Shown here: piece after piece, positions 4,120-30,639 of the stretch
Numbering within the stretch: the stretch's first letter is position 1
Layout of the letters: each line of letters opens with the position of its first letter
Source: Mycobacteriales bacterium
Lineage (GTDB): Bacteria; Actinomycetota; Actinomycetes; Mycobacteriales; QHCA01
Reading direction: 5' to 3'
NCBI GenBank assembly: GCA_038237645.1
Contig: JBBRYN010000001.1
Coordinates: 55,899-119,898, forward strand
Length of the DNA stretch: 64,000 nucleotides
Position numbers and translations under genes: made by a program
The notes under the pieces: model-generated
The model's database searches: none
What the model saw: the letters and a program-made list of their open reading frames with translations, nothing else
What the model was told of the DNA's origin: nothing

Positions 4120-4934
4120 CCGCCGACCGCCTCGCGCAACTTGTCGAGCACCAGCGGGTCGATGGCCCCGGGGAGTGCCCGCTCCTCATAGTTCTCCACT
4201 CCCATCCAGGTCTCCAGGTCCGGTTGGCCGAGGGCGTCGAGATGGCGGCGCACCTCGTCGGCGACCTCGCCTTGCAGGGGAAGGCTGCTGGCCGGGTCAG
4301 GTCTGCCGAAGTGCAACTCGTGCAGCGCCAGCAGCCGCACCAATTCGGTCACCGGCGCCGCGTGGTCGTCGACGCGGAGGTCCACCAGGACATCGCTGCC
4401 GCCGCCGTAGCCGCTACCCGGAGACACCACATAGACCGCCGCGCTCTGCCGCCCCCGGGCGTCACCACCGGCCTTGTCTCCGGCGGCGAGGGCCTCGATC
4501 AGCCGCGTTGCCAGCGGTGCGCCAGGATTGGCGGCCAGCCAGGTCTGCTCCATCTCCTGCGCGACCTCGGCACCGGTCAGGATGTTGCCCTGGCAGGCAT
4601 AGCCGGGCCCGCCGCATCCACCGGCCCAGGCGTTGCAGTCGGCACCGGTGAAGGTGGCGCCGTCGCCGTCCGGCCCGACCACGCCGATCTGCCGGGTCTG
4701 GCGGCCTGGGTCGGCAGCGATCAGTCCGGCGATGACGTGTTCGGCGGGAACGCCGGTCCGCAACAGCGCAAGCGCCTGAGGCCGAAAGGCGAGGTTGGCC
4801 AAGGCCTGGGTCGCGACCGCCCCGACGCCCACTTCGGCGGCCGGGACGGCACTGCCGACGGCGAGGAACTTGCTGGCGACCGCCACGCCGTACGACTGCC
4901 CGTCCAGGCCGCGTGCCACGATGGAAAACGTCAT
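4116..4934 (-). CDS. DUF1028 (Ntn-hydrolase-fold) protein with a C-terminal peptidoglycan-binding-like tail
   Basis: Shows MTFSIVARGLDGQSYGVAVASKFLAVGSAVPAAEVGVGAVATQA, the characteristic DUF1028 N-terminus. Its stop overlaps the glpK ATG (ATGA at 4116-4119). Confidence 0.75.
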   Translation of the reverse strand: MTFSIVARGLDGQSYGVAVASKFLAVGSAVPAAEVGVGAVATQALANLAFRPQALALLRTGVPAEHVIAGLIAADPGRQTRQIGVVGPDGDGATFTGADCNAWAGGCGGPGYACQGNILTGAEVAQEMEQTWLAANPGAPLATRLIEALAAGDKAGGDARGRQSAAVYVVSPGSGYGGGSDVLVDLRVDDHAAPVTELVRLLALHELHFGRPDPASSLPLQGEVADEVRRHLDALGQPDLETWMGVENYEERALPGAIDPLVLDKLREAVGG

Positions 4935-4951
4935 GGCCGGACGATAGTGCG

Positions 4952-6031
4952 CTACCGGCCGGGCTCGAACCAGAATGGCCTGGCGGCGAACCGCAGCTCC
5001 TCGTGGTAGGGCGGATGGCGGCGCCCCCGGTCGTCGCGGTCGGCGGACTCGAGGACAGCCCGTATCGCGTGGCGGTCGCCGATCGCGGCGGGCCCAGCCT
5101 CCGCCCGGGCCACCGGAAGCGCCCGCTCAGGCCGGTCGGGTCGCCAGCGGACGAGCACGACCGAGGGCGCCGGTGCCGGCCACAGTCGCAAGGTGAGCCC
5201 GCGCCAGTCGAACCTGTCGGGCTCAGGCAGCGGTGTTGCGCCCATCCTGGTGAGGGAAGCCGCCGTGCCCCGGCCACGGAGGGGAGCGAGATGGAGGTCG
5301 ATGGAGGAAGGGCGAACCCTCCCGGGCGACCAGACCGCCCGGGCCGACGAGCCGGTCAAGGCGACCTTCGGGTAAGGCCAGTCGTGCGAGAGTTCCTCGA
5401 GCAGGGCTCGGAGAGCGTCGGGGGCAGGGCCGGCCAGCTGGACCGGCAGCCGATCGGCAAGCGGCACCCGCAGTCGAGCGAGCCGTCGGGCCAGCAACCG
5501 ATTGCTCGCCTGCCGGTCGGCCGCCAGCCAGGCCCGGATGGCCTGGTCGTCGGACGCAATCAGCTGCTCGTGCTGGGCCTGCTGCTTGGCGCGCTCCGCG
5601 CGCCGCGTCGCCCGCACCTCGCTCCGGCGTTCTCGCGCCGTGATCGGGGACCTGGACAGCCGCTCGGCGGCCTCCCGGGCCGCGGCATTCTCGCGTACCC
5701 GACGTGCGCCGTCTGCCGAGTCGGCCCGCCGACGTGCAGACTTCCGACCGGCCAGCTCGCACGCCGCTGCGCGGCCCGGTGTCGCGCCGCATGTTGTCAA
5801 CCGCAGCTCCCAGCGCAGGCCACAGAACCCCAGCAGCCGCTGGAGGAGGCCGACAGGCGGGTCGACCCGACGTGCTTCGATCCGGGCGATCAGCGACTGT
5901 GACACAGTCGCGCGTCTGGCCAGGTCGCGTTGACTGAGTCGAGCCAGCCGGCGGCCGTGGCGTAACGCCGCTACGGCGTCGAGCCCGTCGACCTCCCGAG
6001 CGGCAGCCGATCGATGCAGCCCGTTCGCCAC
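4952..6031 (-). CDS. XRE-family HTH protein with an Arg/Glu-rich central region and an uncharacterised C-terminal domain
   Basis: N-terminus is LRHGRRLARLSQRDLARRATVSQSLIARIEARRVDPPVGLLQRLL (HTH_XRE pattern). It lies 17 nt upstream of the DUF1028 gene on the same strand. Confidence 0.65.
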   Translation of the reverse strand: MANGLHRSAAAREVDGLDAVAALRHGRRLARLSQRDLARRATVSQSLIARIEARRVDPPVGLLQRLLGFCGLRWELRLTTCGATPGRAAACELAGRKSARRRADSADGARRVRENAAAREAAERLSRSPITARERRSEVRATRRAERAKQQAQHEQLIASDDQAIRAWLAADRQASNRLLARRLARLRVPLADRLPVQLAGPAPDALRALLEELSHDWPYPKVALTGSSARAVWSPGRVRPSSIDLHLAPLRGRGTAASLTRMGATPLPEPDRFDWRGLTLRLWPAPAPSVVLVRWRPDRPERALPVARAEAGPAAIGDRHAIRAVLESADRDDRGRRHPPYHEELRFAARPFWFEPGR

Positions 6032-6063
6032 GTACCGACCCTCCCGCTAGCCCGAATCGTCTG

Positions 6064-6112
6064 GATGAACCTATGGGGTGAGTCGCCGAGCGACTCACCC
6101 CATAGGTTCATC
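6064..6112. repeat. Perfect 23-bp inverted repeat with a 3-nt centre in the divergent HTH / exoribonuclease intergenic region
   Basis: GATGAACCTATGGGGTGAGTCGC-cga-GCGACTCACCCCATAGGTTCATC, checked pair by pair with 23/23 complementary. It lies about 30 nt upstream of the HTH gene start (6031) and about 90 nt upstream of the exoribonuclease start. Confidence 0.95.
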
Positions 6113-6202
6113 TGTGGAAGGCGGCCCTGCTGTGGACGGCAAGCGAATCGTCCGCAGTCGCACGACTCGGCCGTGCATCTGGTCCGGTACGGTCGGTCGG
6201 TG

Positions 6203-6712
6203 GTGCGACGGGTCTTCTATGACTGCGAGTTCATCGAGGACGGACGAACCATCGACCTCGTGTCGATCGGCGCGGTCGATGAAGAGGGCCGAGAGTTCTA
6301 CGCAGTCTCCACCGAATTCGACCCGAACAAGGCGATCCCCTGGGTACGGGACAACGTCCTGGAAAAGCTGCCACCGCCGGCTGATGCCAGGTGGCGATCC
6401 CTGGAGACCCTCTGCGCCGACTTGCTTTCCTTTCTCACCGAACCGGGCGAGGCTCTGGAGCTGTGGGCGTGGTACGCCGCCTACGACCATGTCGCGCTTT
6501 GCCAACTGTGGGGTGCGATGCCCGCATTGCCACGGGTGGTACCGAGATTCACCAAAGACCTCCGGCAGCGATGGGACGACCTCGGCCGGCCCGCGCTGCC
6601 GCCCGCGCCGTCGGATCAGCACGACTCGCTCGCCGACGCCCGGCACAACCTCGAGCGATGGCTGACAATGGAGGAGCATCGGGGGAGGCACGGTTGGGGC
6701 AACGGCGAGTGA
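6203..6712 (+). CDS. 3'-5' exoribonuclease, Rv2179c-like (DEDD fold)
   Basis: VRRVFYDCEFIEDGRTIDLVSIGAVDEEGREFYAVSTEFDP...ELWAWYAAYDHVALCQLWG...PRFTKDLRQ closely tracks my recollection of M. tuberculosis Rv2179c (MRYFYDTEFIEDGRTIELISIG...). The track ORF (6014) is an upstream extension. GTG at 6203 (or 6200) was chosen to match the Rv2179c N-terminus. Confidence 0.85.
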   Translation: MRRVFYDCEFIEDGRTIDLVSIGAVDEEGREFYAVSTEFDPNKAIPWVRDNVLEKLPPPADARWRSLETLCADLLSFLTEPGEALELWAWYAAYDHVALCQLWGAMPALPRVVPRFTKDLRQRWDDLGRPALPPAPSDQHDSLADARHNLERWLTMEEHRGRHGWGNGE

Positions 6713-6729
6713 CTCGCTACCGTTTGCCC

Positions 6730-10124
<3,395 letters not shown>

Positions 10125-20488: not shown

Positions 20489-22000
20489 TCAGCGCCGGGC
20501 ACGAGAACGGTAGGCCGGGTCCGGGCCGGTGATCCGCTCCGCGGCCAGCCGGCCGGAGATCAGCACCATAGGCACGCCGACGCCGGGCTGGGTGCCCGAG
20601 CCGGCGAACACCACGTTGTCCAGCCTGGGTGCCAGGTTGGCCGGCCGGAAGGGGCCGGTCTGCCGGAAGGTGTGGGCGGCGGCGAAGGGCGTGCCCATCG
20701 CCAGCCCGGCGGCCTGCCAGTCGGCCGGCGTCACCGCGTGCTCGACCTCGACGGCGTCGCCGAAGCCGACATATCCTCTGGCCTCCAGGACGGCCACCAC
20801 CTCGTCGCGGTACCTCGGCCCGACGGCCTCCCAGTCGATGCCCGCACCGGTGTGGGGTGTCGGCACGAGCACGGAGTAGGTCTGCCTGCCGGCCGGTGCC
20901 AGCGACGGATCGCTGCACGACGGGTTGGTGACCAGCAGCGAGGGATCGCTCATCAACTGCTGACGTCCGATCAGCTCGCCGAAGGCGCCACGCCAGGAGC
21001 GTCCGAAGTGGATGGTGTGGTGGGCGGTCTGCCGATATACCGCCGAGGAGCCGGCGTGCAGCAGGAAACACGACGGCGAGTAGCGCAGCCGCGCGACGCG
21101 CCTCGGCGCGGCCCGCGGTGGCAACAGTGCGCCGTAAGCGACCGGGAGGTCAGCATTGAGCACGACCACGTCGGCCGGTATCCGCTCACCCGTAGCCGTC
21201 AGGACGGCCACCGCCCGGCCGCCGATGACCTCCACCTGGACCACCTCGTTGTCGTAGCGGAAGGTGACACCGTGCTTTTCCGCGGCGCCGGCCAGGGCGA
21301 GCGGCACACTGTGCATGCCACCACGCGGGAAGTAGACGCCGGCCACCGAGTCCATGTAGGCGATGACCGCGTAGCTGGCCAATGCGTCGTACGGCGAGAG
21401 CCCGGCGTACATCGCCTGGAAGGAAAAGACCCGTTGCAGGCGGGGATCGGGCAGGTATGACGCGACCTTCGGCGCCAGCCGCCGGAAGCCACCCAGCATG
21501 AGCAGGTGGAGCAGCCGCCGGCTGACGAGGTCGATCGGGGAATCGAGATTGCGGTCGATGAAATCCTGAAACTGCACCCGGTAGAGCCGGGACACGAAGG
21601 CGACGAATCGCAGGTAGCCGGCCGCGGCGGCCGGGCCGCAGACCCGTTCGACCTCGGCGGCCATCTCGCCGGGGTCGGCCAGCACGTCGAGCCGCGAGCC
21701 GTCGGGGTAGCAGGCCCGGTAGATCGGGGAGATCGGCTCCAGGTCGAGCCAGTCCGACAGCCGCTCGCCTACGCAGTCCAGCGCGTCGGCGATCAGGTCG
21801 GGCATGGTGAGCACCGTCGGGCCGGTGTCGAAGGTGTATCCACCGACCGTCAGCCGGCCGGCCCGCCCACCAGGCACCGCCGCGCGCTCCAGCACGGTGA
21901 CGGCGCGGCCGGCGCCGGCCAGCCGCAGGGCCGCCGACAGCCCGCCCAGCCCGGCGCCGACCACGACGACGTGATCGGTCCGGCCGGCTACCGTCCGCAC
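20489..22000 (-). CDS. crtI: Phytoene desaturase
   Basis: HVVVVGAGLGGLSAALRLAGAG (FAD-binding motif) ... FAGSGTQPGVGVPMVLISG (CrtI C-terminal signature). GTG at 22000 lies 10 nt after the crtE stop. Confidence 0.92.
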   Translation of the reverse strand: MRTVAGRTDHVVVVGAGLGGLSAALRLAGAGRAVTVLERAAVPGGRAGRLTVGGYTFDTGPTVLTMPDLIADALDCVGERLSDWLDLEPISPIYRACYPDGSRLDVLADPGEMAAEVERVCGPAAAAGYLRFVAFVSRLYRVQFQDFIDRNLDSPIDLVSRRLLHLLMLGGFRRLAPKVASYLPDPRLQRVFSFQAMYAGLSPYDALASYAVIAYMDSVAGVYFPRGGMHSVPLALAGAAEKHGVTFRYDNEVVQVEVIGGRAVAVLTATGERIPADVVVLNADLPVAYGALLPPRAAPRRVARLRYSPSCFLLHAGSSAVYRQTAHHTIHFGRSWRGAFGELIGRQQLMSDPSLLVTNPSCSDPSLAPAGRQTYSVLVPTPHTGAGIDWEAVGPRYRDEVVAVLEARGYVGFGDAVEVEHAVTPADWQAAGLAMGTPFAAAHTFRQTGPFRPANLAPRLDNVVFAGSGTQPGVGVPMVLISGRLAAERITGPDPAYRSRARR

Positions 22001-22010
22001 GCGGCAGGCC

Positions 22011-23132
22011 CTAGCCCTGCCGCGCGGTCGCGGCGACGGCGAGGTCGCGCAGCACGCCACGCGCCTCCTCGTCGATGTCGGCCAGTGCCAGCGCGGTCAA
22101 CGACTGCTCGGCCCGTTCGCTGATCAGCCGCTCGCTCTGCGCCAGCGCCCCGGTCTCGGTGATGACCTCGCGCAGCGCGGCGACCCCGCCGGCGGACAGG
22201 TGCGGGTCGCCGAGATGGCCGCGGACGAGTGCCGACTGGCGGGGGTCGGCCCGCTCGAGGGTGAGCGAGATCAGCACGGTGCGCTTGCCCTCGCGCAGGT
22301 CGTCGCCGGCCGGCTTGCCGGTGGCGGACGGGTCGCCGAACACCCCCAGTACGTCGTCGCGAAGCTGGAATGCCTCGCCCAGCGGCAGCCCGTAGGCCGT
22401 GTAGGAGGCGAGGACATGCGGCGGGGCGCCGGCCAACGCGGCCCCGAGGTGCAGCGGCCGCTCGATCGTGTATTTGGCGCTCTTGTACGTTGCCACCCGC
22501 ATCGAGCGTTCCGTGGCGGAGCCACCAATGACATCCGTGGCGGAGCCACCAATGACATCCGTGGATGCCCCCCCCACGGCCTGCTCGAGCACGTCGAGGT
22601 ACTGGCCGGCCATCAACTCCGTCCGCATCACGTCGTAGACCGGTTGCCCGCGCTGCAGGACTTCGGCGGGCAGCCCCGAGGTGTTGTAGGTCTCGTCGGC
22701 CCAGATGAGGCACAGGTCGCCGAGCAGGATGGCCGCGGACTGCCCGAACGCCTCCGGGTCGCCGCGCCAGCTCTCGGTGCGGTGCAGGGAAGCGAAGCGG
22801 CGGTGCACGGCGGGCGCCCCACGCCTGGTCTCCGACCCGTCCATCACGTCGTCGTGGATCAGGGCGCAGGCGTGCAGCAATTCCAGCGCGGCAACCGCCG
22901 CGACGATCTGGTCGTTGTCGCCGCCGCCTGCCCCGCGCCAGCCCCAGTAGCCGAAGGCCGGCCGCAGGCGCTTGCCGCTGTCGAGCAGAAAGTCCGAGAG
23001 CGCGTCGGCGACCGGGCCCAGGTCCACGCTGATCGCGTCGAGCCGGTGGCGTTGCCGGGTCAGGATGGCGTCGATCGCCTTGGTGACGCGGGCACGGAGG
23101 TCGACTCTGTCGACCGGACTCTCTGCTGTCAC
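22011..23132 (-). CDS. crtE: Polyprenyl (geranylgeranyl) diphosphate synthase
   Basis: FARM motif LIHDDVMDGS and SARM motif FQLRDDVLGVFGD, plus KYKSAKYT-type YKSAKYTIERPL. It holds the position equivalent to idsA2 (Rv2173). Confidence 0.92.
   Translation of the reverse strand: MTAESPVDRVDLRARVTKAIDAILTRQRHRLDAISVDLGPVADALSDFLLDSGKRLRPAFGYWGWRGAGGGDNDQIVAAVAALELLHACALIHDDVMDGSETRRGAPAVHRRFASLHRTESWRGDPEAFGQSAAILLGDLCLIWADETYNTSGLPAEVLQRGQPVYDVMRTELMAGQYLDVLEQAVGGASTDVIGGSATDVIGGSATERSMRVATYKSAKYTIERPLHLGAALAGAPPHVLASYTAYGLPLGEAFQLRDDVLGVFGDPSATGKPAGDDLREGKRTVLISLTLERADPRQSALVRGHLGDPHLSAGGVAALREVITETGALAQSERLISERAEQSLTALALADIDEEARGVLRDLAVAATARQG
22513..22560 (-). repeat. Perfect 24-bp x2 in-frame tandem duplication inside crtE, with a diverged third copy at 22561-22584
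   Basis: GTGGCGGAGCCACCAATGACATCC occurs twice back to back. It encodes GGSATDVI-GGSATDVI within AVGGASTDVIGGSATDVIGGSATERS, between the two Asp-rich motifs. Confidence 0.95.
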
Positions 23133-24126: not shown

Positions 24127-24795
24127 ATGCGCGTGCTGCCCGACCGGGACGGCTACTTCACGCTGTGGTCCGGGCTGCACGGCGGGTACGACCCCCGCGC
24201 GGCGTTCTGGCCGCGGACCTGGCTGACAGTTTCCTACTACTGTGCCCGGCCGCTGGCCCGGCTCGGTGTCGCGCCCCACGTGTTGACCGCGGCCGGCGGG
24301 CTGACCAGCGGGGCGGTGGCCGGGGTGGCCTGGCTCGGCGGCCGCTGGGCGCTGCTCGCTGTCATTGTCGTGCTTGCCTCGGGGCTGACCGACAGTCTCG
24401 ACGGCGCCGTAGCGGCGCTGACCGGCCGGGCTACGGCGTTCGGCTACGTCCTGGACTCCCTCGTCGACCGGCTCTCCGACGGCTCCTACCTGCTCGCGCT
24501 GTGGCTGGTCGGCGCGCCGGCCTGGCTCTGCGTGCTCGGCGGGGTGGTCACCATGTTGCAGGAGTATCTGCGTGCGCGGGCCGGCAACGCGGGCATGGCC
24601 GAGATCGGCGTCGTGACCGTTGCCGAGCGGCCCACCCGGGTGATCATCACCGCCGTCACCCTGTGCGCGGCCGGGTTGCTCCCGCGCCACGCCGGTGCAG
24701 CCGCTGCTGCCGGTGCGGCCGCCTGGCTGGTCGCCGGCACGATGGGCTTCGGCCAGCTGGCCGTGGCGGTGCGGCGTAGCCTCACCGGCGGGTGA
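24127..24795 (+). CDS. CDP-alcohol phosphatidyltransferase family membrane protein
   Basis: DSLDGAVAALTGRATAFGYVLDSLVDRLSD matches D-G-x2-A-x8-G-x3-D-x3-D. The protein is multi-TM, and ATG at 24127 lies 4 nt after the metF stop. Confidence 0.8.
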   Translation: MRVLPDRDGYFTLWSGLHGGYDPRAAFWPRTWLTVSYYCARPLARLGVAPHVLTAAGGLTSGAVAGVAWLGGRWALLAVIVVLASGLTDSLDGAVAALTGRATAFGYVLDSLVDRLSDGSYLLALWLVGAPAWLCVLGGVVTMLQEYLRARAGNAGMAEIGVVTVAERPTRVIITAVTLCAAGLLPRHAGAAAAAGAAAWLVAGTMGFGQLAVAVRRSLTGG

Positions 24796-24854
24796 GGGGT
24801 GCCTATCGCTGACGAGTCTGGGTCGGCTGACCTGCGGACCTGCTGAAGGGTGGC

Positions 24855-25235
24855 TCACTGGTGCCGGTCCTCGATGACCAGCAGCCGGGCGCCAGCCTCG
24901 TTTTCGATGATGGTGCGGCGGGCGCGGTAGCTGCCGGGATGACGCGACAGGTGTTCTGGACTGGGAATGGCGACGGCCCGGACCTCTTGGCGGCGCAAAG
25001 CATCCATCAGCGCGCAGAAGGCCGACCGTTCTGGATGGTCGTGAGACGGGTCGTACAGATCCGTGAAGACGTGCCCCAGCGTCAGGCCTTCCCGCTCGGC
25101 GTACGAGTGGATTTCGGCTGCGAGCAGAGCACGCGTGTCCGGTGGATCGGCTGCCCATACCCGGAAGTAGCCGAGGATCAGCGGCCGTAGCCGACCGAAA
25201 CCAGCGTCGTCGATTACGAAATCGGGCACCGTCAT
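24855..25235 (-). CDS. Small resolvase-N-terminal-domain-like protein lacking the catalytic serine
   Basis: MTVPDFVIDDAGFGRLRPLILGYFRVWAADPP...IHSYAEREGLTLGHVF...RAVAIPSPEHLSR. By eye it aligns to the serine-recombinase catalytic domain (GYxRVSTxxQ), but with W-A in place of S-T and no DNA-binding domain. The internal ATG at 25235 was chosen. Confidence 0.5.
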   Translation of the reverse strand: MTVPDFVIDDAGFGRLRPLILGYFRVWAADPPDTRALLAAEIHSYAEREGLTLGHVFTDLYDPSHDHPERSAFCALMDALRRQEVRAVAIPSPEHLSRHPGSYRARRTIIENEAGARLLVIEDRHQ

Positions 25236-25407
25236 GGCGATGACGATCCGGTGACGTCCCGTGACCGGTCGAGGGCCGTTCGTGGGCGGCTTGCGGACCC
25301 ATCCGGGACCGGCCCCGGTCCCCAGTAGGACCAATGCTCGAGGCGCTTGCTCTTTGGATCCTGGGAGGTCAGCGTCAGACTGGACGTGTCGAAAGGAGTT
25401 GCGCACC

Positions 25408-26721
25408 ATGGCAGGTCGGGCTGCGACACCTCGCACGGTCCTGGAGCAGATGCTCTGGAAGCAGGACAGGACCTACGAGGAGTTGGCCTGCGACTTCGAC
25501 GGGTTGGCACGCCAGATGGGCGAGCGGGCAACGATGAGCGCTCGGCACCTTCGGCGGCTGGCGTCGGGGCAGCGGTCGGGCACGACGCCCGTGACCCGCC
25601 GAGTCCTTCAACAGATGTTCGGCCTGCCCACCGGTGAGCTTCTTCAGTCGTTAGCCGATGGGCACGGCACTGTCACCTCAACGCCGGCCGAGGGGATCCT
25701 GGCCGACCCGAGCGAGCGAGAGTTGGTTGCCATGGCGGCGCAGCGCGCCCGCAAATTCACCCTGTCCACCAAGGCGACCGCGAGTGCTGAGTCCGTGGAG
25801 CAGGTCTATGACGATGTTCGGCGGCTGGCTGTCGCCTACCCTCGACACCCGCTGTCGGAAGTCCTCGCCACTCTCGTCCAGGTGCAGGACAGCACGTATG
25901 AACTGCTCGAACATCGGCAACGGCCGCAGCAGGCGCGCGATCTGTACCTTCTTGCCGGGGTGGTGGGAGGCATGCTCGCCAAGGCCTCCCACGACCTGGC
26001 CGATCCATATGCCGCTATGACCCAGGCCCGCGCAGCATTCCTGTGTGCGGACAACGCTGATCATGATGGTCTCCGCGCATGGTTGCGAGGCCTCCAGGCT
26101 CTCATCGCTTACTGGGCCGGTCGTCCAGCCGAGTCGGTCCGGTATGCCCAGTCGGGCGCCGAATACGTGGCCGAAGGGTATGGATCGGCCGGGGTGTGGT
26201 TGTCCTTGAGCCAAGCCCGTGGACTCGCCTCGCTCGGCGACCGGGAGGGCACCATGCATGCGATCCGTCAGGCGGAGGACGGCTGGGAAATGTTCCAGCC
26301 AGATCAACTTGATGAGTTCGGTGGTATCTGCACATTCACTCGGTCGCGTCAGATCTACTACGCCGCGGACGCGCTCAGCTGGCTTCCCGATGAAGCCGTC
26401 CGTGCGGAGAACTACTCGGTCGAGGCCGTGCAGGCGTACAGCGACACTGACTCATCCGAGTGGGCGTTTGGCGATCAAGCCGGCTCGCACACGAACCTGG
26501 CCATCGCCCAGATTGCTCGCGGGGAGCTGGACGGTGCCTATGAAGCCCTCGACCCGGTGCTTGGTCTCCCGCCGGGGCGACGGATCAATGGGATCATCCA
26601 CTCCCTGCGGCGGGTGAACGACGCGCTGCGGCGATCGACGTCCGACGCGGACCGGGTTGTTGAGTTGCAGGAGGGAATCGAGGCATTCACTCGCACCCCG
26701 GTCGCGGCTCACCTGCGGTGA
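25408..26721 (+). CDS. XRE-type HTH regulator with a large C-terminal TPR-like helical domain
   Basis: ATG at 25408 has AAAGGAG 10 nt upstream. The N-terminus (TYEELACDFDGLARQMGERATMSARHLRRLASGQR) is HTH-like. The remaining ~350 aa are helical repeats (YLLAGVVGGMLAKASHDLADPYAAM..., LIAYWAGR...). Confidence 0.65.
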   Translation: MAGRAATPRTVLEQMLWKQDRTYEELACDFDGLARQMGERATMSARHLRRLASGQRSGTTPVTRRVLQQMFGLPTGELLQSLADGHGTVTSTPAEGILADPSERELVAMAAQRARKFTLSTKATASAESVEQVYDDVRRLAVAYPRHPLSEVLATLVQVQDSTYELLEHRQRPQQARDLYLLAGVVGGMLAKASHDLADPYAAMTQARAAFLCADNADHDGLRAWLRGLQALIAYWAGRPAESVRYAQSGAEYVAEGYGSAGVWLSLSQARGLASLGDREGTMHAIRQAEDGWEMFQPDQLDEFGGICTFTRSRQIYYAADALSWLPDEAVRAENYSVEAVQAYSDTDSSEWAFGDQAGSHTNLAIAQIARGELDGAYEALDPVLGLPPGRRINGIIHSLRRVNDALRRSTSDADRVVELQEGIEAFTRTPVAAHLR

Positions 26722-27341
26722 GCAGATGGGTTCGCACCCCGGTTCAAGTCCCCGGCCACCACGTCGTCCTGCGCGACTTCCGGCCCGACGATGTGGACGC
26801 TGCCCTTGCCGTGGTGGGCGACGACCGGGTAACACGATCGCTGTCCTTCGACAGCCGTGATCGAGATCAGGCAGCGGCCATGATCACCGGCGTGATTGAC
26901 CGCGCGAGCCGGGACCCTCGTATCGAGTACTACCTGGCAATCACGCTCACTCAGACGGACGAGGCCATCGGTTTCGCCCGGCTGGGCCTCGACGGAGTTC
27001 AAGCGGCAAAGCTCGGCTACGCGATAGCCGCTGATCTCTGGGGCCGTGGGTACGCCACCGATGCCGCACGCACTATCGTCAGCTTCGGATTCCACGACCT
27101 CGGCCTGCATCGGATCAGCGCCGCAATCGGCCCCGACAACGCGCACTCGATCGCCTTGATTGAGCGGCTCGGTTTTGCGTACGAGGGCCGCATCCGGCAC
27201 CACGTCTTGACCAATGGAGTGTGGCGCGACAGCTTGCTGTACTCCGTTCTCGCCGAAGAGTGGGTCGTCGCCCAGTCGGGTCCGGCCGCCCCGGCCGGAC
27301 CGGTGCTCAGCGCAGTGCCTCCGGCTGCCTCTGAGGGGTGA
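26718..27341 (+). CDS. GNAT N-acetyltransferase (RimJ/RimL-like)
   Basis: LRDFRPDDVDAALAVVGDDRV..., LGYAIAADLWGRGYATDAARTIVSFGF, RISAAIGPDNAHSIALIERLGFAYEG. GTG at 26718 overlaps the upstream stop (GTGA). Confidence 0.85.
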   Translation: MSRWVRTPVQVPGHHVVLRDFRPDDVDAALAVVGDDRVTRSLSFDSRDRDQAAAMITGVIDRASRDPRIEYYLAITLTQTDEAIGFARLGLDGVQAAKLGYAIAADLWGRGYATDAARTIVSFGFHDLGLHRISAAIGPDNAHSIALIERLGFAYEGRIRHHVLTNGVWRDSLLYSVLAEEWVVAQSGPAAPAGPVLSAVPPAASEG

Positions 27342-29038
27342 TCGTCGCCGGCGAGTTGTCCGCTGCCGGCGTGGCCGGTGAGCCGCTGGCGATCGTCGTC
27401 GTGCCGGGTGTCGGCCTGGCACTGGCCTGGGCCGGCGGCGAGCTGCAGGTGCCGACGCCCGAGCCGGCAACCGTCGTGCGCGATCTGGCGTCCCTGGATC
27501 CCCGGTGGACGTGGTGGTCGGCGCGGGCGACGGCGGCCACGCTGGTCGAGGCCGGAGTACGCCCGCGGATCTGCTGGGACCTCGGCGCGGTCGGACGGCT
27601 GCTGCACGGGCTGCGCCGCGACGACCCAGCGGCCGTGTGGGCCGCCGAGCACGGCCTGCCCGAGCCGCCGCTGCCCGCTGCGGCCCCCGACCTCTTCGAC
27701 CTGGACGCTGGATCGGGTGGGCCGGTACGCGGCGACGGTCAGCTCAGCCGGGAGTGGCTGGCCGGAAGCTGGGCGAGCGGCCTCGACTCGGCGCAGCGCT
27801 GGGCCAGGCTGGCGATGGCGGTCCAGGGTCGCCAGGAGGCGGCACTGCACGCCTTGCCTGATTTCCGGCCGGGGCCCCGGCAGCCGCCACTGGCCTGGTT
27901 GACCGCGTGCGCTGAATCGGCAGTGGCACTGTTGGCGGTGGAGCTCTCCCACGACGGGCTGCCGCTCGACCGGACGGTTTTCGCCGGGCTGCTGCGAGCC
28001 GCCATCGGCGAGCGGCCGGCGGATGCCGCTGAGCGGGCTGCCGGTCAGAGCGCCCGCGACGCGCTGGTGCTGCGGCACTTCGCCGGGCCGCCGGTCGACC
28101 TGCGCAACCCGCTGCAGGTGCGGGAGATGCTCGGCCGGGCCGGCTTCGACGTTCCGGACACCCGGTCCTGGCGCCTGCAGCCGCACGCCGCCACCAACCC
28201 GGGGATCGCGGCCCTGCTCGCCTGGCGCAAGGCCGAGCGAATTGCCACGACGTACGGCTGGCGCTGGCTGTCCCGGCACGTCGGCGAGGACGGGCGGCTG
28301 CGCGGGGGGTGGAACGCGGCCGACGGGGGATCCGGCCGGATGACGGCGGCGGCCGGGCTGCACAATCTGCCGGCGGTGCTGAGGACGGCCGTCCGTGCCG
28401 AGCCCGGCAAGATCCTGGTACGCGCCGACCTGGGCCAGGTGGAGCCGCGGGTGCTCGCGGCCGTCTCCGGCGACGCCGGGCTGGCACAGGCCGCCGGCGC
28501 GGACGACATGTACGCACCGGTGGCAGCAGCGCTCGGCTGCGACCGGCCGACGGCCAAGGTCGCCGTGCTCGCCGCGATGTACGGCCAGACCTCGGGGGTC
28601 GCCGGCGCGGCGCTGCGCGACATGGACCGCGCCTACCCGCGGGCCATGGCCTACCTGCGAGCGGCAGAGGAGTCCGGGCGGCGGGGCCGGGACGTGCGCA
28701 CCTACGGTGGCCGGCTGATCCCCCTGGCGCTGCCCGGGCCGGACGCCGCACCCGGCTACGGCCGCTACGCCCGCAACGCCGTCGTGCAGGGGGCGGCGGC
28801 TGAGCTGTTCAAGGCCTGGACGGCGACCGTCCGGGACGGTCTGCGAGTGATCGGCGGGGAGATCGTGCTGTGCCTGCATGACGAACTGCTGCTGCAGGTG
28901 CCACGGCGACAGGCCGGCGCCACCAGGGAACTGCTCTCCGCAAGTCTGGACAGCACGACTCGCTGGTGGGCCGCCGGCAGCCCGGTGCGTTTCGTCGTCG
29001 AGGTGAGCTTCGGCGCCAGTTGGGCCGACGCCCACTGA
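27338..29038 (+). CDS. Family-A DNA polymerase (short PolA-like, annotated in databases as bifunctional 3'-5' exonuclease/DNA polymerase)
   Basis: Motif A is RADLGQVEPRVLAAVSGD, motif B is RPTAKVAVLAAMYGQTSG and motif C is LCLHDELLLQV. GTG at 27338 overlaps the GNAT stop (GTGA). Confidence 0.8.
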   Translation: MIVAGELSAAGVAGEPLAIVVVPGVGLALAWAGGELQVPTPEPATVVRDLASLDPRWTWWSARATAATLVEAGVRPRICWDLGAVGRLLHGLRRDDPAAVWAAEHGLPEPPLPAAAPDLFDLDAGSGGPVRGDGQLSREWLAGSWASGLDSAQRWARLAMAVQGRQEAALHALPDFRPGPRQPPLAWLTACAESAVALLAVELSHDGLPLDRTVFAGLLRAAIGERPADAAERAAGQSARDALVLRHFAGPPVDLRNPLQVREMLGRAGFDVPDTRSWRLQPHAATNPGIAALLAWRKAERIATTYGWRWLSRHVGEDGRLRGGWNAADGGSGRMTAAAGLHNLPAVLRTAVRAEPGKILVRADLGQVEPRVLAAVSGDAGLAQAAGADDMYAPVAAALGCDRPTAKVAVLAAMYGQTSGVAGAALRDMDRAYPRAMAYLRAAEESGRRGRDVRTYGGRLIPLALPGPDAAPGYGRYARNAVVQGAAAELFKAWTATVRDGLRVIGGEIVLCLHDELLLQVPRRQAGATRELLSASLDSTTRWWAAGSPVRFVVEVSFGASWADAH

Positions 29039-29127: not shown

Positions 29128-30639
29128 TCACGCGGGGCCGATCAGGCCCGCGGTGATCTGCGCCGAGAGCAGCACCAGCGGCAGCCCGCCGCCGGGATGC
29201 GCCGAGCCGCCGACCAGGAACAGCCCCGGCAGCGGGGCGCGGTTGGCCGGCCGCAGGAAGGCGGCCCGCGGGCCGTTGGACGACGTCCCGTAGATCGCCC
29301 CGCCCACCGACCGGGTCTCGCGCTGCAGGTCGGCGGGAGTGCGGACCTCGGTGAACATCAGCCGGTCGCGCACGTCGTGACCGCGGTCGGCCAGCACCTC
29401 CAACAGCCGCGCGGCGTAGGACTCCGCCCGGCCCGGCGCCGTCCAGTCGATCGCGCCGACGATCCCGTGAGCCCCCGAGTCGGTGCCGGCGTAGTGCCGT
29501 GCTGCATTGACCAGCACGAACCATGCCTCGTGCCCGTCCGGCGCAGCGGCCGGATCGTCCGGCACGCTGACGTACAGGGTCGGGTCGTCCACCGGTCGCG
29601 CAGCTGCGCCGAAAACGGCGTCGAACTCGGCGTCGTAGTCGACCGGAAAGAAGACGTTGTGGTGCGCCAGCCCGCGCGTACGTCCCCGTACCCCCAACAG
29701 CAGGACGAACGCCGACAGCGAGGGAGTGGCCCGGCGCAGCCGTCGCGCTGCACGGGGCAGGTCCACCAGGCTGCCGTAGACATGTGCCGCGTCGACGTCT
29801 GTGACGACGACGTCGGCCGGCAGCCGGCCGCCGCCGGCGAGCACCACGGCACTGGGCCGCCCGGCGGCGTGCTCGATAGCGGTGACATCTGCCGACGTGC
29901 GCAGCGTCGCCCCCGCCTCGATGCAGCGGGCCTGCAGCGCGCCGACGATCCGGCGCAGGCCGCCGCGGACATACCAGCCGCCGAAGGCCAGCTCGGCATA
30001 AGGGACGGCGGCCAGTGCCGCCGGCGCGCGCCGCGGGTCGGAACCGGTGTAGGTGGCGTAGCGCTCCAACAGCATCCGCAGCCGCGGATCGCGCAGGTGG
30101 GACCGCCCGAGACTGCGCAGCGTCCGCCATGGCGCGATCGCCAGCAGGTCGCGCACGTGCCGGCTCTGGCGGAGCAGCGCCGGCAGGCCGGCCACCGGTG
30201 CGGACAGGAACGGCCCCGACGCCGCGGCCCAGATCCGCTCAGCCCGGCGCCAGAGCCGGTCCCAGTCCGCGCCGGCCGAGCCGCCGAGGGTGGCCTCGAT
30301 CCGTTGGCAGAACATCTCGTGGTCGGAGCAGGAGTCCAGCATCGTGCCGTCAGCGAAGCGATATCTGGCCACCGGATCCAGCGGTACGAGGTCGAGCACC
30401 GACTCCAGCGGGTCACCAGTGACATTGAACAGGTCGCCCAGCACCTGCGGGAGGGTCAGCAGCGACGGGCCGGTGTCGAAGCGGAACTGCCCGGCCGGCG
30501 TCCCGGTGACGAACTCGCCGAGCTTTCCGCCGAGCGCCGTCGACTGCTCGCACACGGTCACGGTATGGCCCAGCGCCGCCAGCCGAGCCGCCGCCGCCAG
30601 GCCGCCCACGCCGCCACCCACGACGACGATCCGGCTCAT
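29128..30639 (-). CDS. crtD: CrtI-family carotenoid desaturase/ketolase (CrtD/CrtO-like)
   Basis: MSRIVVVGGGVGGLAAAARLAALG (FAD motif) ... LFLVGGSAHPGGGLPLVLLSAQ. It is the second CrtI paralogue in the window, and its ATG at 30639 overlaps the GT2 stop (ATGA). Confidence 0.8.
   Translation of the reverse strand: MSRIVVVGGGVGGLAAAARLAALGHTVTVCEQSTALGGKLGEFVTGTPAGQFRFDTGPSLLTLPQVLGDLFNVTGDPLESVLDLVPLDPVARYRFADGTMLDSCSDHEMFCQRIEATLGGSAGADWDRLWRRAERIWAAASGPFLSAPVAGLPALLRQSRHVRDLLAIAPWRTLRSLGRSHLRDPRLRMLLERYATYTGSDPRRAPAALAAVPYAELAFGGWYVRGGLRRIVGALQARCIEAGATLRTSADVTAIEHAAGRPSAVVLAGGGRLPADVVVTDVDAAHVYGSLVDLPRAARRLRRATPSLSAFVLLLGVRGRTRGLAHHNVFFPVDYDAEFDAVFGAAARPVDDPTLYVSVPDDPAAAPDGHEAWFVLVNAARHYAGTDSGAHGIVGAIDWTAPGRAESYAARLLEVLADRGHDVRDRLMFTEVRTPADLQRETRSVGGAIYGTSSNGPRAAFLRPANRAPLPGLFLVGGSAHPGGGLPLVLLSAQITAGLIGPA

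Follow-up and report, generated by a model that had tools for sequence, protein, structure and literature searches.

XRE-type regulators that lie beside small, enigmatic proteins such as BldB (DUF397), AbaA and IosA are abundant in actinomycete genomes, where they control antibiotic production and sporulation. In Streptomyces, the gene for AbaA, which carries a HATPase_c domain, flanks WhiJ and BldB paralogues, and WhiJ9 binds direct repeats in the divergent iosA–whiJ9 spacer and controls the divergent iosA (PMC10294661). NsdA and NsdB of S. coelicolor are proteins with TPR-like domains that, according to references cited in a single article (PMC9739823), have a negative effect on antibiotic production and differentiation. 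Among homologues of serine recombinases, poxvirus F16 is an inactivated one (PMC4304020). Here we describe a cassette at positions 24796–27337 of a 64,000-nt stretch of a Mycobacteriales bacterium genome (contig JBBRYN010000001.1; the whole stretch is called the window below), which encodes a small mini-resolvase-like protein, a regulator of putative helix-turn-helix (HTH)–TPR architecture and a GNAT acetyltransferase. The regulator, the GNAT and an array of phased GGACC boxes ahead of them form the conserved unit of this cassette, while the small protein, a member of a stable family of non-recombinases, occupies a variable divergent slot.

The features of the cassette are as follows; below, P designates proteins obtained in homologue searches and L loci examined for their neighbourhoods.

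24855–25235, minus strand: mini-resolvase-like gene for a stand-alone, truncated, Ser-less protein of predicted serine-recombinase fold, with Trp27 at the nucleophile position and EHLSR replacing DRLxR
25236–25407: divergent spacer between the small gene and the regulator gene, 172 bp
25262–25332: array of pentamers phased at 11 bp, the presumed operator; phasing exact, homologous arrays upstream of all seven orthologues
25392–25398, plus strand: Shine-Dalgarno sequence AAAGGAG, 9 nt before the ATG at 25408
25408–26721, plus strand: NsdA-family regulator gene; predicted five-helix N-domain at residues ~9–80, disordered linker and TPR-like alpha-superhelix at ~103–430
26718–27341, plus strand: gene for a RimJ/RimL-like GNAT acetyltransferase (PF13302), its GTG start overlapping the regulator stop (GTGA)

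The open reading frame (ORF) of the small gene encodes 126 aa and contains LILGYFRVWAADPP, and public gene callers arrive at exactly this product (P0001); the regulator has 437 aa. A sequence-only reading of this region had reported a divergent pair of lower GC content, and its ORF coordinates, GYFRVW motif, 172-bp spacer, AAAGGAG site and three hand counts of G+C (29/60 at 26281–26340, 35/60 at 25861–25920 and 47/60 at 27361–27420, all exact on recounting) were confirmed in the sequence. The drop in composition is real, and the low-GC region runs on through the third gene, from ~24800 to ~27300, with a GC content of 0.63–0.68 against 0.72–0.78 in the flanks. No other 2.5-kb stretch of the window has a GC content as low as that of the block.

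Seven loci orthologous to that of the regulator were compared, on a Kribbella chromosome (L015), in Nonomuraea (L016) and on Streptomyces linear plasmids or plasmid-like contigs (L017, L024–L027); L016 has an FtsK/SpoIIIE context resembling an integrative element (actinomycete integrative and conjugative element-like, AICE-like). The next gene after the regulator encoded a 180-aa GNAT in all seven, and the three GNATs compared (L015–L017) were 52–63% identical to that of the window. The regions upstream of the regulator also aligned across the orthologues, with 11-bp-phased sets of GGACC/GGTCC in every one of them, ~65–145 nt upstream, where 0.4–0.8 boxes would be expected. The slot upstream of the regulator was filled elsewhere by genes for products of 57, 110 or 94 aa, or by a co-directional ATPase gene. 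The divergent 57-, 110- and 94-aa products, tested as hidden members of the small family, were unrelated to the family and to each other. Because the array and the GNAT occur in all of the orthologous loci and a small-family ORF in none of the seven, the conserved unit is the array, the HTH–TPR regulator and the GNAT, with the small gene in a variable slot. Both conserved partners of the regulator had been missed by the sequence-only reading, which left the GNAT gene at 26718–27341 outside its module even though this gene shares the low GC and the third-position composition of the block.

In the window, the array comprised the following boxes.

GGACC at 25295, GGACC at 25306, GGTCC at 25317 and GGACC at 25328: perfect boxes
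TGACC at 25262, GGGCC at 25273 and GGGCG at 25284: degenerate boxes in phase with the perfect ones

The perfect boxes lie at −113, −102, −91 and −80 relative to the regulator gene. Four boxes in one register were rare under shuffling (p < 5e-5), and no other 172-nt stretch of the 64-kb window contained such a set. On the other side of the spacer, the ATG of the small gene is separated by ~25 bp from the first degenerate box and by 60–100 bp from the perfect ones.

The regulator passed the NCBIfam model of the NsdA family (NF053720) with 100.8 bits against a cut-off of 75, residues 12–422 covering model positions 3–431 of 432. Its AlphaFold2 model (predicted local distance difference test score, pLDDT, 87.6) consisted of five short helices at residues 11–78, a disordered linker and an uninterrupted alpha-superhelix. 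The TPR-type assignment of the sequence-only reading is thus upheld by the NsdA-family model and the modelled superhelix, but not by the Pfam HTH and TPR models, none of which scored above threshold. More than 760 homologues were found at E ≤ 1e-3, in Streptomyces, Kribbella, Nonomuraea, Actinomadura and Kitasatospora, most of them labelled hypothetical and a few XRE family. The NsdA and NsdB equivalog models (NF050130 and NF050135) did not match the regulator, and gave just 94–134 bits, against cut-offs of 700–830, with the family proteins of L010 and L013. An hhalign comparison of the regulator family with the NsdA-family protein of L010 was weak (E = 0.02), and a profile search of the PDB sequences with the regulator family returned nothing meaningful. 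Neither DUF5753 nor DUF397 was present in the window cassette.

One relative bears on the N-terminal domain. P0044, a 518-aa metagenomic protein, has a TPR domain 72% identical to that of the regulator over 360 aa, behind an unrelated N-terminus with a canonical HTH_3/HTH_31 domain; this is a domain swap in a close relative. Because the same TPR domain follows a canonical HTH in P0044, the comparison argues that the N-domain of the regulator is a DNA-binding module, putatively a divergent XRE-like HTH. In an hhalign comparison, the SARHLRRLASGQR segment aligned weakly (E = 0.04) with the recognition helix of WhiJ-like HTHs.

The small protein adopts the serine-recombinase catalytic fold in its AlphaFold2 model (pLDDT 84.5), with strands and helices alternating from strand 1 to strand 4. 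The model ends after strand 4, at residues 117–120 of 126, and helix E and the DNA-binding domain are missing. Its best 19 PDB structure matches were all serine-recombinase catalytic domains, with template modelling (TM) scores of 0.55–0.68 (3lhk, 6dgc and 3bvp included). A profile of 26 homologues matched the TP901-1 integrase catalytic domain, MJ0014 and an IS607-family TnpA among PDB sequences, with weak E-values. The top matches among viral models (BFVD) were likewise serine-recombinase catalytic domains, among them that of poxvirus OPG061, which we take to be F16. The Pfam Resolvase profile (PF00239), proposed earlier as a check, did match the small protein (E = 1.2e-4, profile positions 2–101 of 145), but the 22.6 bits obtained are under the gathering score of 23.3.

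Several catalytic features have been lost. The nucleophile position is occupied by Trp27 (GYFRVW), while the active-site residue R25 is kept, and the DRLxR motif reads EHLSR. The equivalent of R68 is His95 (a His in 153 of 173 aligned relatives), and that of R71 is Arg98 (80 of 173). These correspondences to gamma-delta resolvase numbering (R8, D67, R68, R71) rest in part on a HMMER alignment to the TP901-1 integrase. The sequence-only reading had described a resolvase-like domain with Trp for the nucleophilic Ser and without a DNA-binding domain, and the Pfam, AlphaFold2 and PDB results agree with it. With the nucleophilic Ser, the Arg of DRLxR (now His), helix E and the DNA-binding domain all lost, the small protein, as judged from its sequence, cannot be a recombinase.

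An exhaustive profile search recovered 594 representative clusters of the small family (50% identity), 81 of them at E ≤ 1e-10 and nearly all of 100–170 aa; PF00239 matched 66 of 105 family representatives (E ≤ 0.01). In the alignment of 173 relatives, G22, Y23, R25, P91 and His95 were conserved, while the Ser column was variable (R 27, S 17, Q 15, E 15, W 14, and others). Pairwise ratios of non-synonymous to synonymous substitution (dN/dS) among eight small-family genes were 0.2–0.6. The small family is a stable branch of the resolvase domain, maintained by selection and not itself a recombinase, with the signature GYxR ... PxxxHL(S/A)R, and no one-off product of decay, because it is conserved across 594 clusters, with a variable Ser column and dN/dS of 0.2–0.6. 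Two members, P0268 (342 aa) and P0285 (309 aa), consist of a mini-resolvase-like N-domain, with the His of the signature and no Ser, fused to an anti-sigma-kinase-like HATPase_c_2 domain; both also end in the C-terminal tail DPxLLRRVxxGLRxLDDW. When the small protein was used as a tblastn query, neither 72,556 plasmids nor 50,697 phage records yielded a match.

Comparison with relatives at the locus, as the sequence-only reading had suggested, revealed that the block is an insertion. The flanks and junctions are the following.

24127–24795, plus strand: CDP-alcohol phosphatidyltransferase gene, left flank, outside the cassette; conserved core gene with a G+C content at third codon positions (GC3) of 0.91
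24793–24801: left copy of the 9-bp direct repeat TGAGGGGTG, starting at the stop codon of the CDP-alcohol phosphatidyltransferase gene and coinciding with the end of the L022/L023 homology
27332–27340: right copy of the 9-bp direct repeat TGAGGGGTG, ending on the GTG start of the PolA-like gene
27338–29038, plus strand: gene for a PolA-like bifunctional 3'-5' exonuclease/DNA polymerase (family A), right flank, outside the cassette; conserved core gene, GC3 0.89

The two closest relatives with long contigs, L022 and L023 (PolA 79% and 77% identical to that of the window), show the same order as the window, namely phytoene desaturase, polyprenyl synthase, methylenetetrahydrofolate reductase (MTHFR), CDP-alcohol phosphatidyltransferase and PolA. 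They lack the block, and the last two genes adjoin directly, separated by 23 bp in L022 and 105 bp in L023. By its closest PolA relatives, the window comes from an uncultured actinomycete of Mycobacteriales/Pseudonocardiales type. DNA homology between the window and these relatives ends at the stop codon of the CDP-alcohol phosphatidyltransferase gene and restarts at the GTG of PolA. GC3 of the three inserted genes was 0.748, 0.756 and 0.764, against 0.89–0.93 for every flanking gene. As L022 and L023 join the flanks directly and GC3 is ~0.75 in the block against ~0.90 outside it, the block was horizontally acquired and inserted between genes that directly adjoin in relatives. The same atypical GC3 of 0.75–0.76 indicates that the three genes arrived together. 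The acquired module between conserved genes that the sequence-only reading proposed is therefore borne out by synteny and GC3, with three genes instead of two.

The junction repeat extends over 25 nt at 76% identity, the first 9 nt being exact. Local alignment of the two junction regions was not significant alone (p ~ 0.09), and the 9-bp repeat is convincing solely because it is located exactly at the synteny break. If the repeat were a 9-bp target duplication, the empty site would be expected to carry TGAGGGGTGATC once. No terminal inverted repeats were found in a search of the 2.54-kb block, no transposase or integrase was present among the three cassette genes, and no tRNA gene in the window.

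Searched with the small-family alignment, genome_contigs contained only two loci and metagenome_contigs four, so the neighbourhood sample is small. An XRE-type regulator lay within ~four genes of the small-family gene in eight of the nine informative loci. In the window, the small gene and the NsdA-family regulator gene diverge; in L010 and L013 the divergent partner encodes an NsdA-family protein scoring 376 bits, and a Cys-rich gene of ~120 aa lies between the two. L001 and L019 combine a Cys-rich gene and the small gene with a nearby WhiJ-like HTH_31–DUF5753 gene, L019 having a weak NsdA-like ORF as well; in L006 and L014 the small gene adjoins a WhiJ-like HTH_31–DUF5753 gene and a different 105-aa Cys-containing gene follows downstream. 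In L004, which holds a paralogue (P0026) from the same genome as the window on another contig, a 492-aa HTH_3 protein is encoded two genes upstream. L009 had no regulator near the small gene. As a control background, HTH_3/HTH_31 matches numbered zero among the neighbour genes of L015–L017, L022 and L023, and the scanned part of the window contained one more XRE-type ORF. The claim that similar pairs recur in actinomycetes accordingly stands in a looser form, since the small family does recur near XRE-type regulators, NsdA-family ones included. The exact pair does not recur: the two specific families do not co-occur at the seven orthologous regulator loci, while the resolvase similarity of the small protein is retained.

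The small Cys-rich, zinc-ribbon-like proteins of ~105–160 aa, which belong to no Pfam or NCBIfam family, are encoded immediately next to the mini-resolvase gene, on its upstream or its downstream side, and probably share its transcript. Their positions are given below; the window small gene has no such partner.

L001, 5504–5992
L010, 1604–1972
L019, ~4180–4977
L020, ~784–1515
L006, 6345–6662
L014, ~6340–6704

L010 and L013 contain near-identical elements (95% identity across the NsdA-family gene, 91% across the small gene) whose middle segments have been cleanly replaced (L010 1614–2008 versus L013 5371–5995), each copy carrying a different Cys-rich small ORF; this looks like a cassette exchange. 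In L004 (1190–3823), a 381-aa protein encoded, like the 492-aa regulator, upstream of P0026 is 40% identical to the C-terminal part of that regulator and amounts to a copy without the HTH; an M48-peptidase-like gene and a gene for a product of ~1500 aa come next.

The explanation that we favour, tentatively, is an autoregulated HTH–TPR/GNAT cassette in whose divergent slot the dead mini-resolvase serves as a non-catalytic accessory. The regulator would oligomerise on four to seven GGACC boxes, one helical turn (11 bp) apart along one face of the DNA, and, once bound to the array, would control its own operon and both divergent promoters. The GNAT would be the output of the cassette, and its substrate is most likely a small molecule or a protein. 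With its ATG only ~25–100 bp from the array, the small gene is probably under the transcriptional control of whichever factor occupies the array. The small protein itself would act non-catalytically, as a protein- or ligand-binding accessory or effector of XRE-type circuits, and by analogy its role may resemble that of the BldB, AbaA and IosA genes flanking WhiJ regulators.

A number of observations weigh against this explanation. The small family is absent from all seven orthologous regulator loci, such that the pairing of small gene and regulator may be incidental to this genome. More indirectly, the contigs of 3.8–18 kb that carry the closest metagenomic relatives of the regulator agree in length with none of those that carry a small-family match. 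The nine informative small-family loci represent only ~six types of arrangement, and the background rate of XRE-type genes, a few percent, could be estimated only roughly. No Pfam HTH or TPR model scored above threshold on the regulator or on 45 of its relatives, and the hhalign match of the regulator N-terminus to a small XRE alignment covers 19 columns at E = 0.04. A scan for sigma-70 promoters and intrinsic terminators, which was not tuned to actinomycetes, found neither, the missing promoters counting here.

The first of the competing accounts would make the two divergent genes fortuitous neighbours, the array with the HTH–TPR/GNAT operon being the whole functional unit and the small gene an unrelated passenger in the variable slot. 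This is unlikely on balance, yet it keeps appreciable weight, as unrelated genes fill the upstream slot in other genomes, the small family is missing there, and L009 shows the small family without a regulator nearby. Against it, the GC3 common to all three genes shows that they came together, and the ~25 bp between the small-gene ATG and the first degenerate box, with 60–100 bp to the perfect boxes, leave no room for an independent control region. The small family is also found near XRE-type regulators in eight of nine loci, three times near those of the NsdA family.

A bolder proposal, which we regard as unlikely, is that the mini-resolvases of Actinobacteria are an unrecognised class of signalling adaptors that plug into XRE-type developmental and antibiotic circuits, here by binding the TPR domain and tuning the GNAT operon through the array. 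The dead, exapted recombinase domain, keeping a conserved Tyr/Arg/His pocket, would then plug into WhiJ-like and NsdA-like regulators and into AbaA-type anti-sigma-like ATPases, as BldB/DUF397 proteins do.

The GNAT gene opens another interpretation. GNAT toxins with DNA-binding antitoxins, such as TacT, AtaT and KacT, are an established class, and the cassette might be a toxin–antitoxin-like or defence addiction module in which the GNAT is the toxin (acetylating, for example, an aminoacyl-tRNA or a ribosomal protein), the HTH–TPR protein an autoregulating antitoxin and the small protein an accessory. Such a module would account for a two-gene operon with the DNA-binding protein first, a tight or overlapping stop and start and an operator array ahead, and for the occurrence of the cassette on Streptomyces linear plasmids, in the AICE-like context of L016 and in the inserted island here. 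We nevertheless consider it improbable. The GNAT is of the RimJ/RimL type (PF13302) and not of the TacT/AtaT type, and its nearest relatives are detoxifying or housekeeping enzymes; the best NCBIfam similarities were to RimJ, AAC(6'), SpeG and BlmB, all far below the cut-offs. The putative antitoxin, with 437 aa and a sensor-like TPR domain where TacAT, AtaRT and KacAT systems have a small RHH/DUF1778 antitoxin, is also out of keeping with this interpretation, and the PADLOC defence models matched none of the small protein, the regulator, the GNAT or the Cys-rich partners. XRE/DUF397 pairs, once proposed as toxin–antitoxin systems, did not behave as such (PMC10364602). The window GNAT carries a 25-aa C-terminal extension (27264–27341) that is absent from its homologues and reads through the right junction, its TGA stop overlapping the GTG start of the PolA-like gene.

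Quorum sensing of the RNPP type, in which the HTH–TPR protein would sense a secreted and re-imported peptide encoded beside it, is very improbable. It would fit the domain order, a putative HTH then TPR, and the PDB structure matches of the regulator model, all of them TPR proteins, were headed by Rap bound to a Phr peptide (4gyo, E = 3e-4). The TM score of this match is only 0.42, though, and the others were generic TPR proteins; no sequence similarity to RNPP families was found, and no small secreted-peptide ORF adjoined the regulator in any locus. The analogy to RNPP regulators drawn in the sequence-only reading thus holds for the generic architecture only, as the neighbour in the window is a folded, cytoplasmic alpha/beta domain of 126 aa and no pro-peptide.

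Scarcely credible, finally, and effectively refuted by conservation of the family across its 594 clusters, is the idea that a serine recombinase inserted the block and survives, decayed, as the small gene, since, for all its recombinase fold and its position at the edge of the block with a short direct repeat, it has the same truncated form of ~110 aa, the same C-terminus and the same signature (PxxxHL, variable Ser column) throughout those clusters, the family is under purifying selection, no residual coding for a recombinase C-terminus follows it in just 59 bp to the left junction, and serine recombinases make 2-bp crossovers that leave no 9-bp duplication.

Some further features of the window lie outside the cassette. 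The PolA-like flanking gene matched the PADLOC DRT model 'RTasPolA' at 52 bits; as the gene is a conserved syntenic core gene in relatives, this match is discounted and is probably generic similarity among family-A polymerases. A carotenoid-type cluster surrounds the insertion, with two phytoene-desaturase-like genes and a polyprenyl synthase gene in the window (~20489–23132 and 29128–30639); L022 and L023 add lycopene cyclase and phytoene synthase, with MTHFR, CDP-alcohol phosphatidyltransferase and PolA embedded in conserved order. Inside the polyprenyl synthetase gene, a perfect tandem repeat of 24 bp (2.3 copies, 22510–22564) encodes GGSATDVI repeats. The second lowest-GC region of the window is at ~5300–8200 (0.67–0.69). 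There, a gene for an XRE-type HTH protein (HTH_3/HTH_31, 359-aa ORF, 4952–6031, minus strand) adjoins that of an Rv2179c-like 3'-5' exoribonuclease (6014–6712, plus strand).

We found no description in the literature of an 11-bp-phased GGACC operator of a mobile HTH–TPR/GNAT operon, nor of a large family of Ser-less mini-resolvases without helix E. The operon is mobile: Streptomyces linear plasmids carry it, it occurs in a context resembling an integrative element, and here it forms part of a chromosomal island. Its sharply defined, conserved array makes experiments on DNA binding and oligomerisation straightforward. Members of the small family tend to be annotated as 'recombinase family protein' or 'DNA invertase' (e.g., P0016), labels that mislead when mobile elements are scored. 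If the family were a regulatory adaptor, it would provide a clean bacterial example of the exaptation of a recombinase catalytic domain.

Set against the known systems, the small protein has the same beta-alpha-beta core as the serine recombinases (PF00239; gamma-delta resolvase, the TP901-1 integrase N-domain, IS607-family TnpA), with GYxR at the end of strand 1. It differs from them in having Trp for Ser and (E/D)HL(S/A)R with a conserved His, in standing alone at ~110–126 aa, and in lacking both helix E, the dimer/tetramer interface that serves oligomerisation and strand exchange, and the DNA-binding domain. Poxvirus F16 is like the small family in that a serine-recombinase catalytic domain was kept after catalysis had been lost and was exapted to a different role (PMC4304020); unlike the family, it is eukaryotic-viral and of ~230 aa, and nothing specific was detected in common beyond the fold.

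The regulator recalls RNPP proteins (Rap, NprR, PlcR, PrgX) and phage AimR in its modelled order of a helical, putatively HTH, N-terminal domain and a TPR-like superhelix, yet its locus lacks a cognate peptide gene, it has no sequence relationship to them, its structural match is limited to the TM of 0.42, and its host is an actinomycete and not a Firmicute or its phage. With NsdA and NsdB (SCO5582 and SCO7252), the regulator shares the NCBIfam family model that it passes, but on a distant branch below the equivalog level; it is, moreover, always coupled to a GNAT and often found on plasmids or integrative elements, neither of which is described for nsdA.

The clusters of WhiJ, BldB (DUF397), AbaA and IosA likewise place an XRE-type regulator beside small, obscure, non-DNA-binding proteins, and the slot beside the regulator is filled by differing families (PMC10294661, PMC10364602), as with the cassette described here. 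Members of the small family themselves adjoin WhiJ-like HTH_31–DUF5753 genes (L001, L006, L014, L019), and two are fused to the AbaA-type HATPase_c_2 domain. The window cassette departs from these clusters in its TPR-like regulator in place of a DUF5753 one, in having no DUF397 gene and in the resolvase fold of its small protein. By analogy, WhiJ9 on the iosA–whiJ9 spacer is the closest worked example and a direct precedent for the architecture of the cassette, with three 10-bp repeats in the WhiJ9 system against seven 11-bp-phased pentamers in the window.

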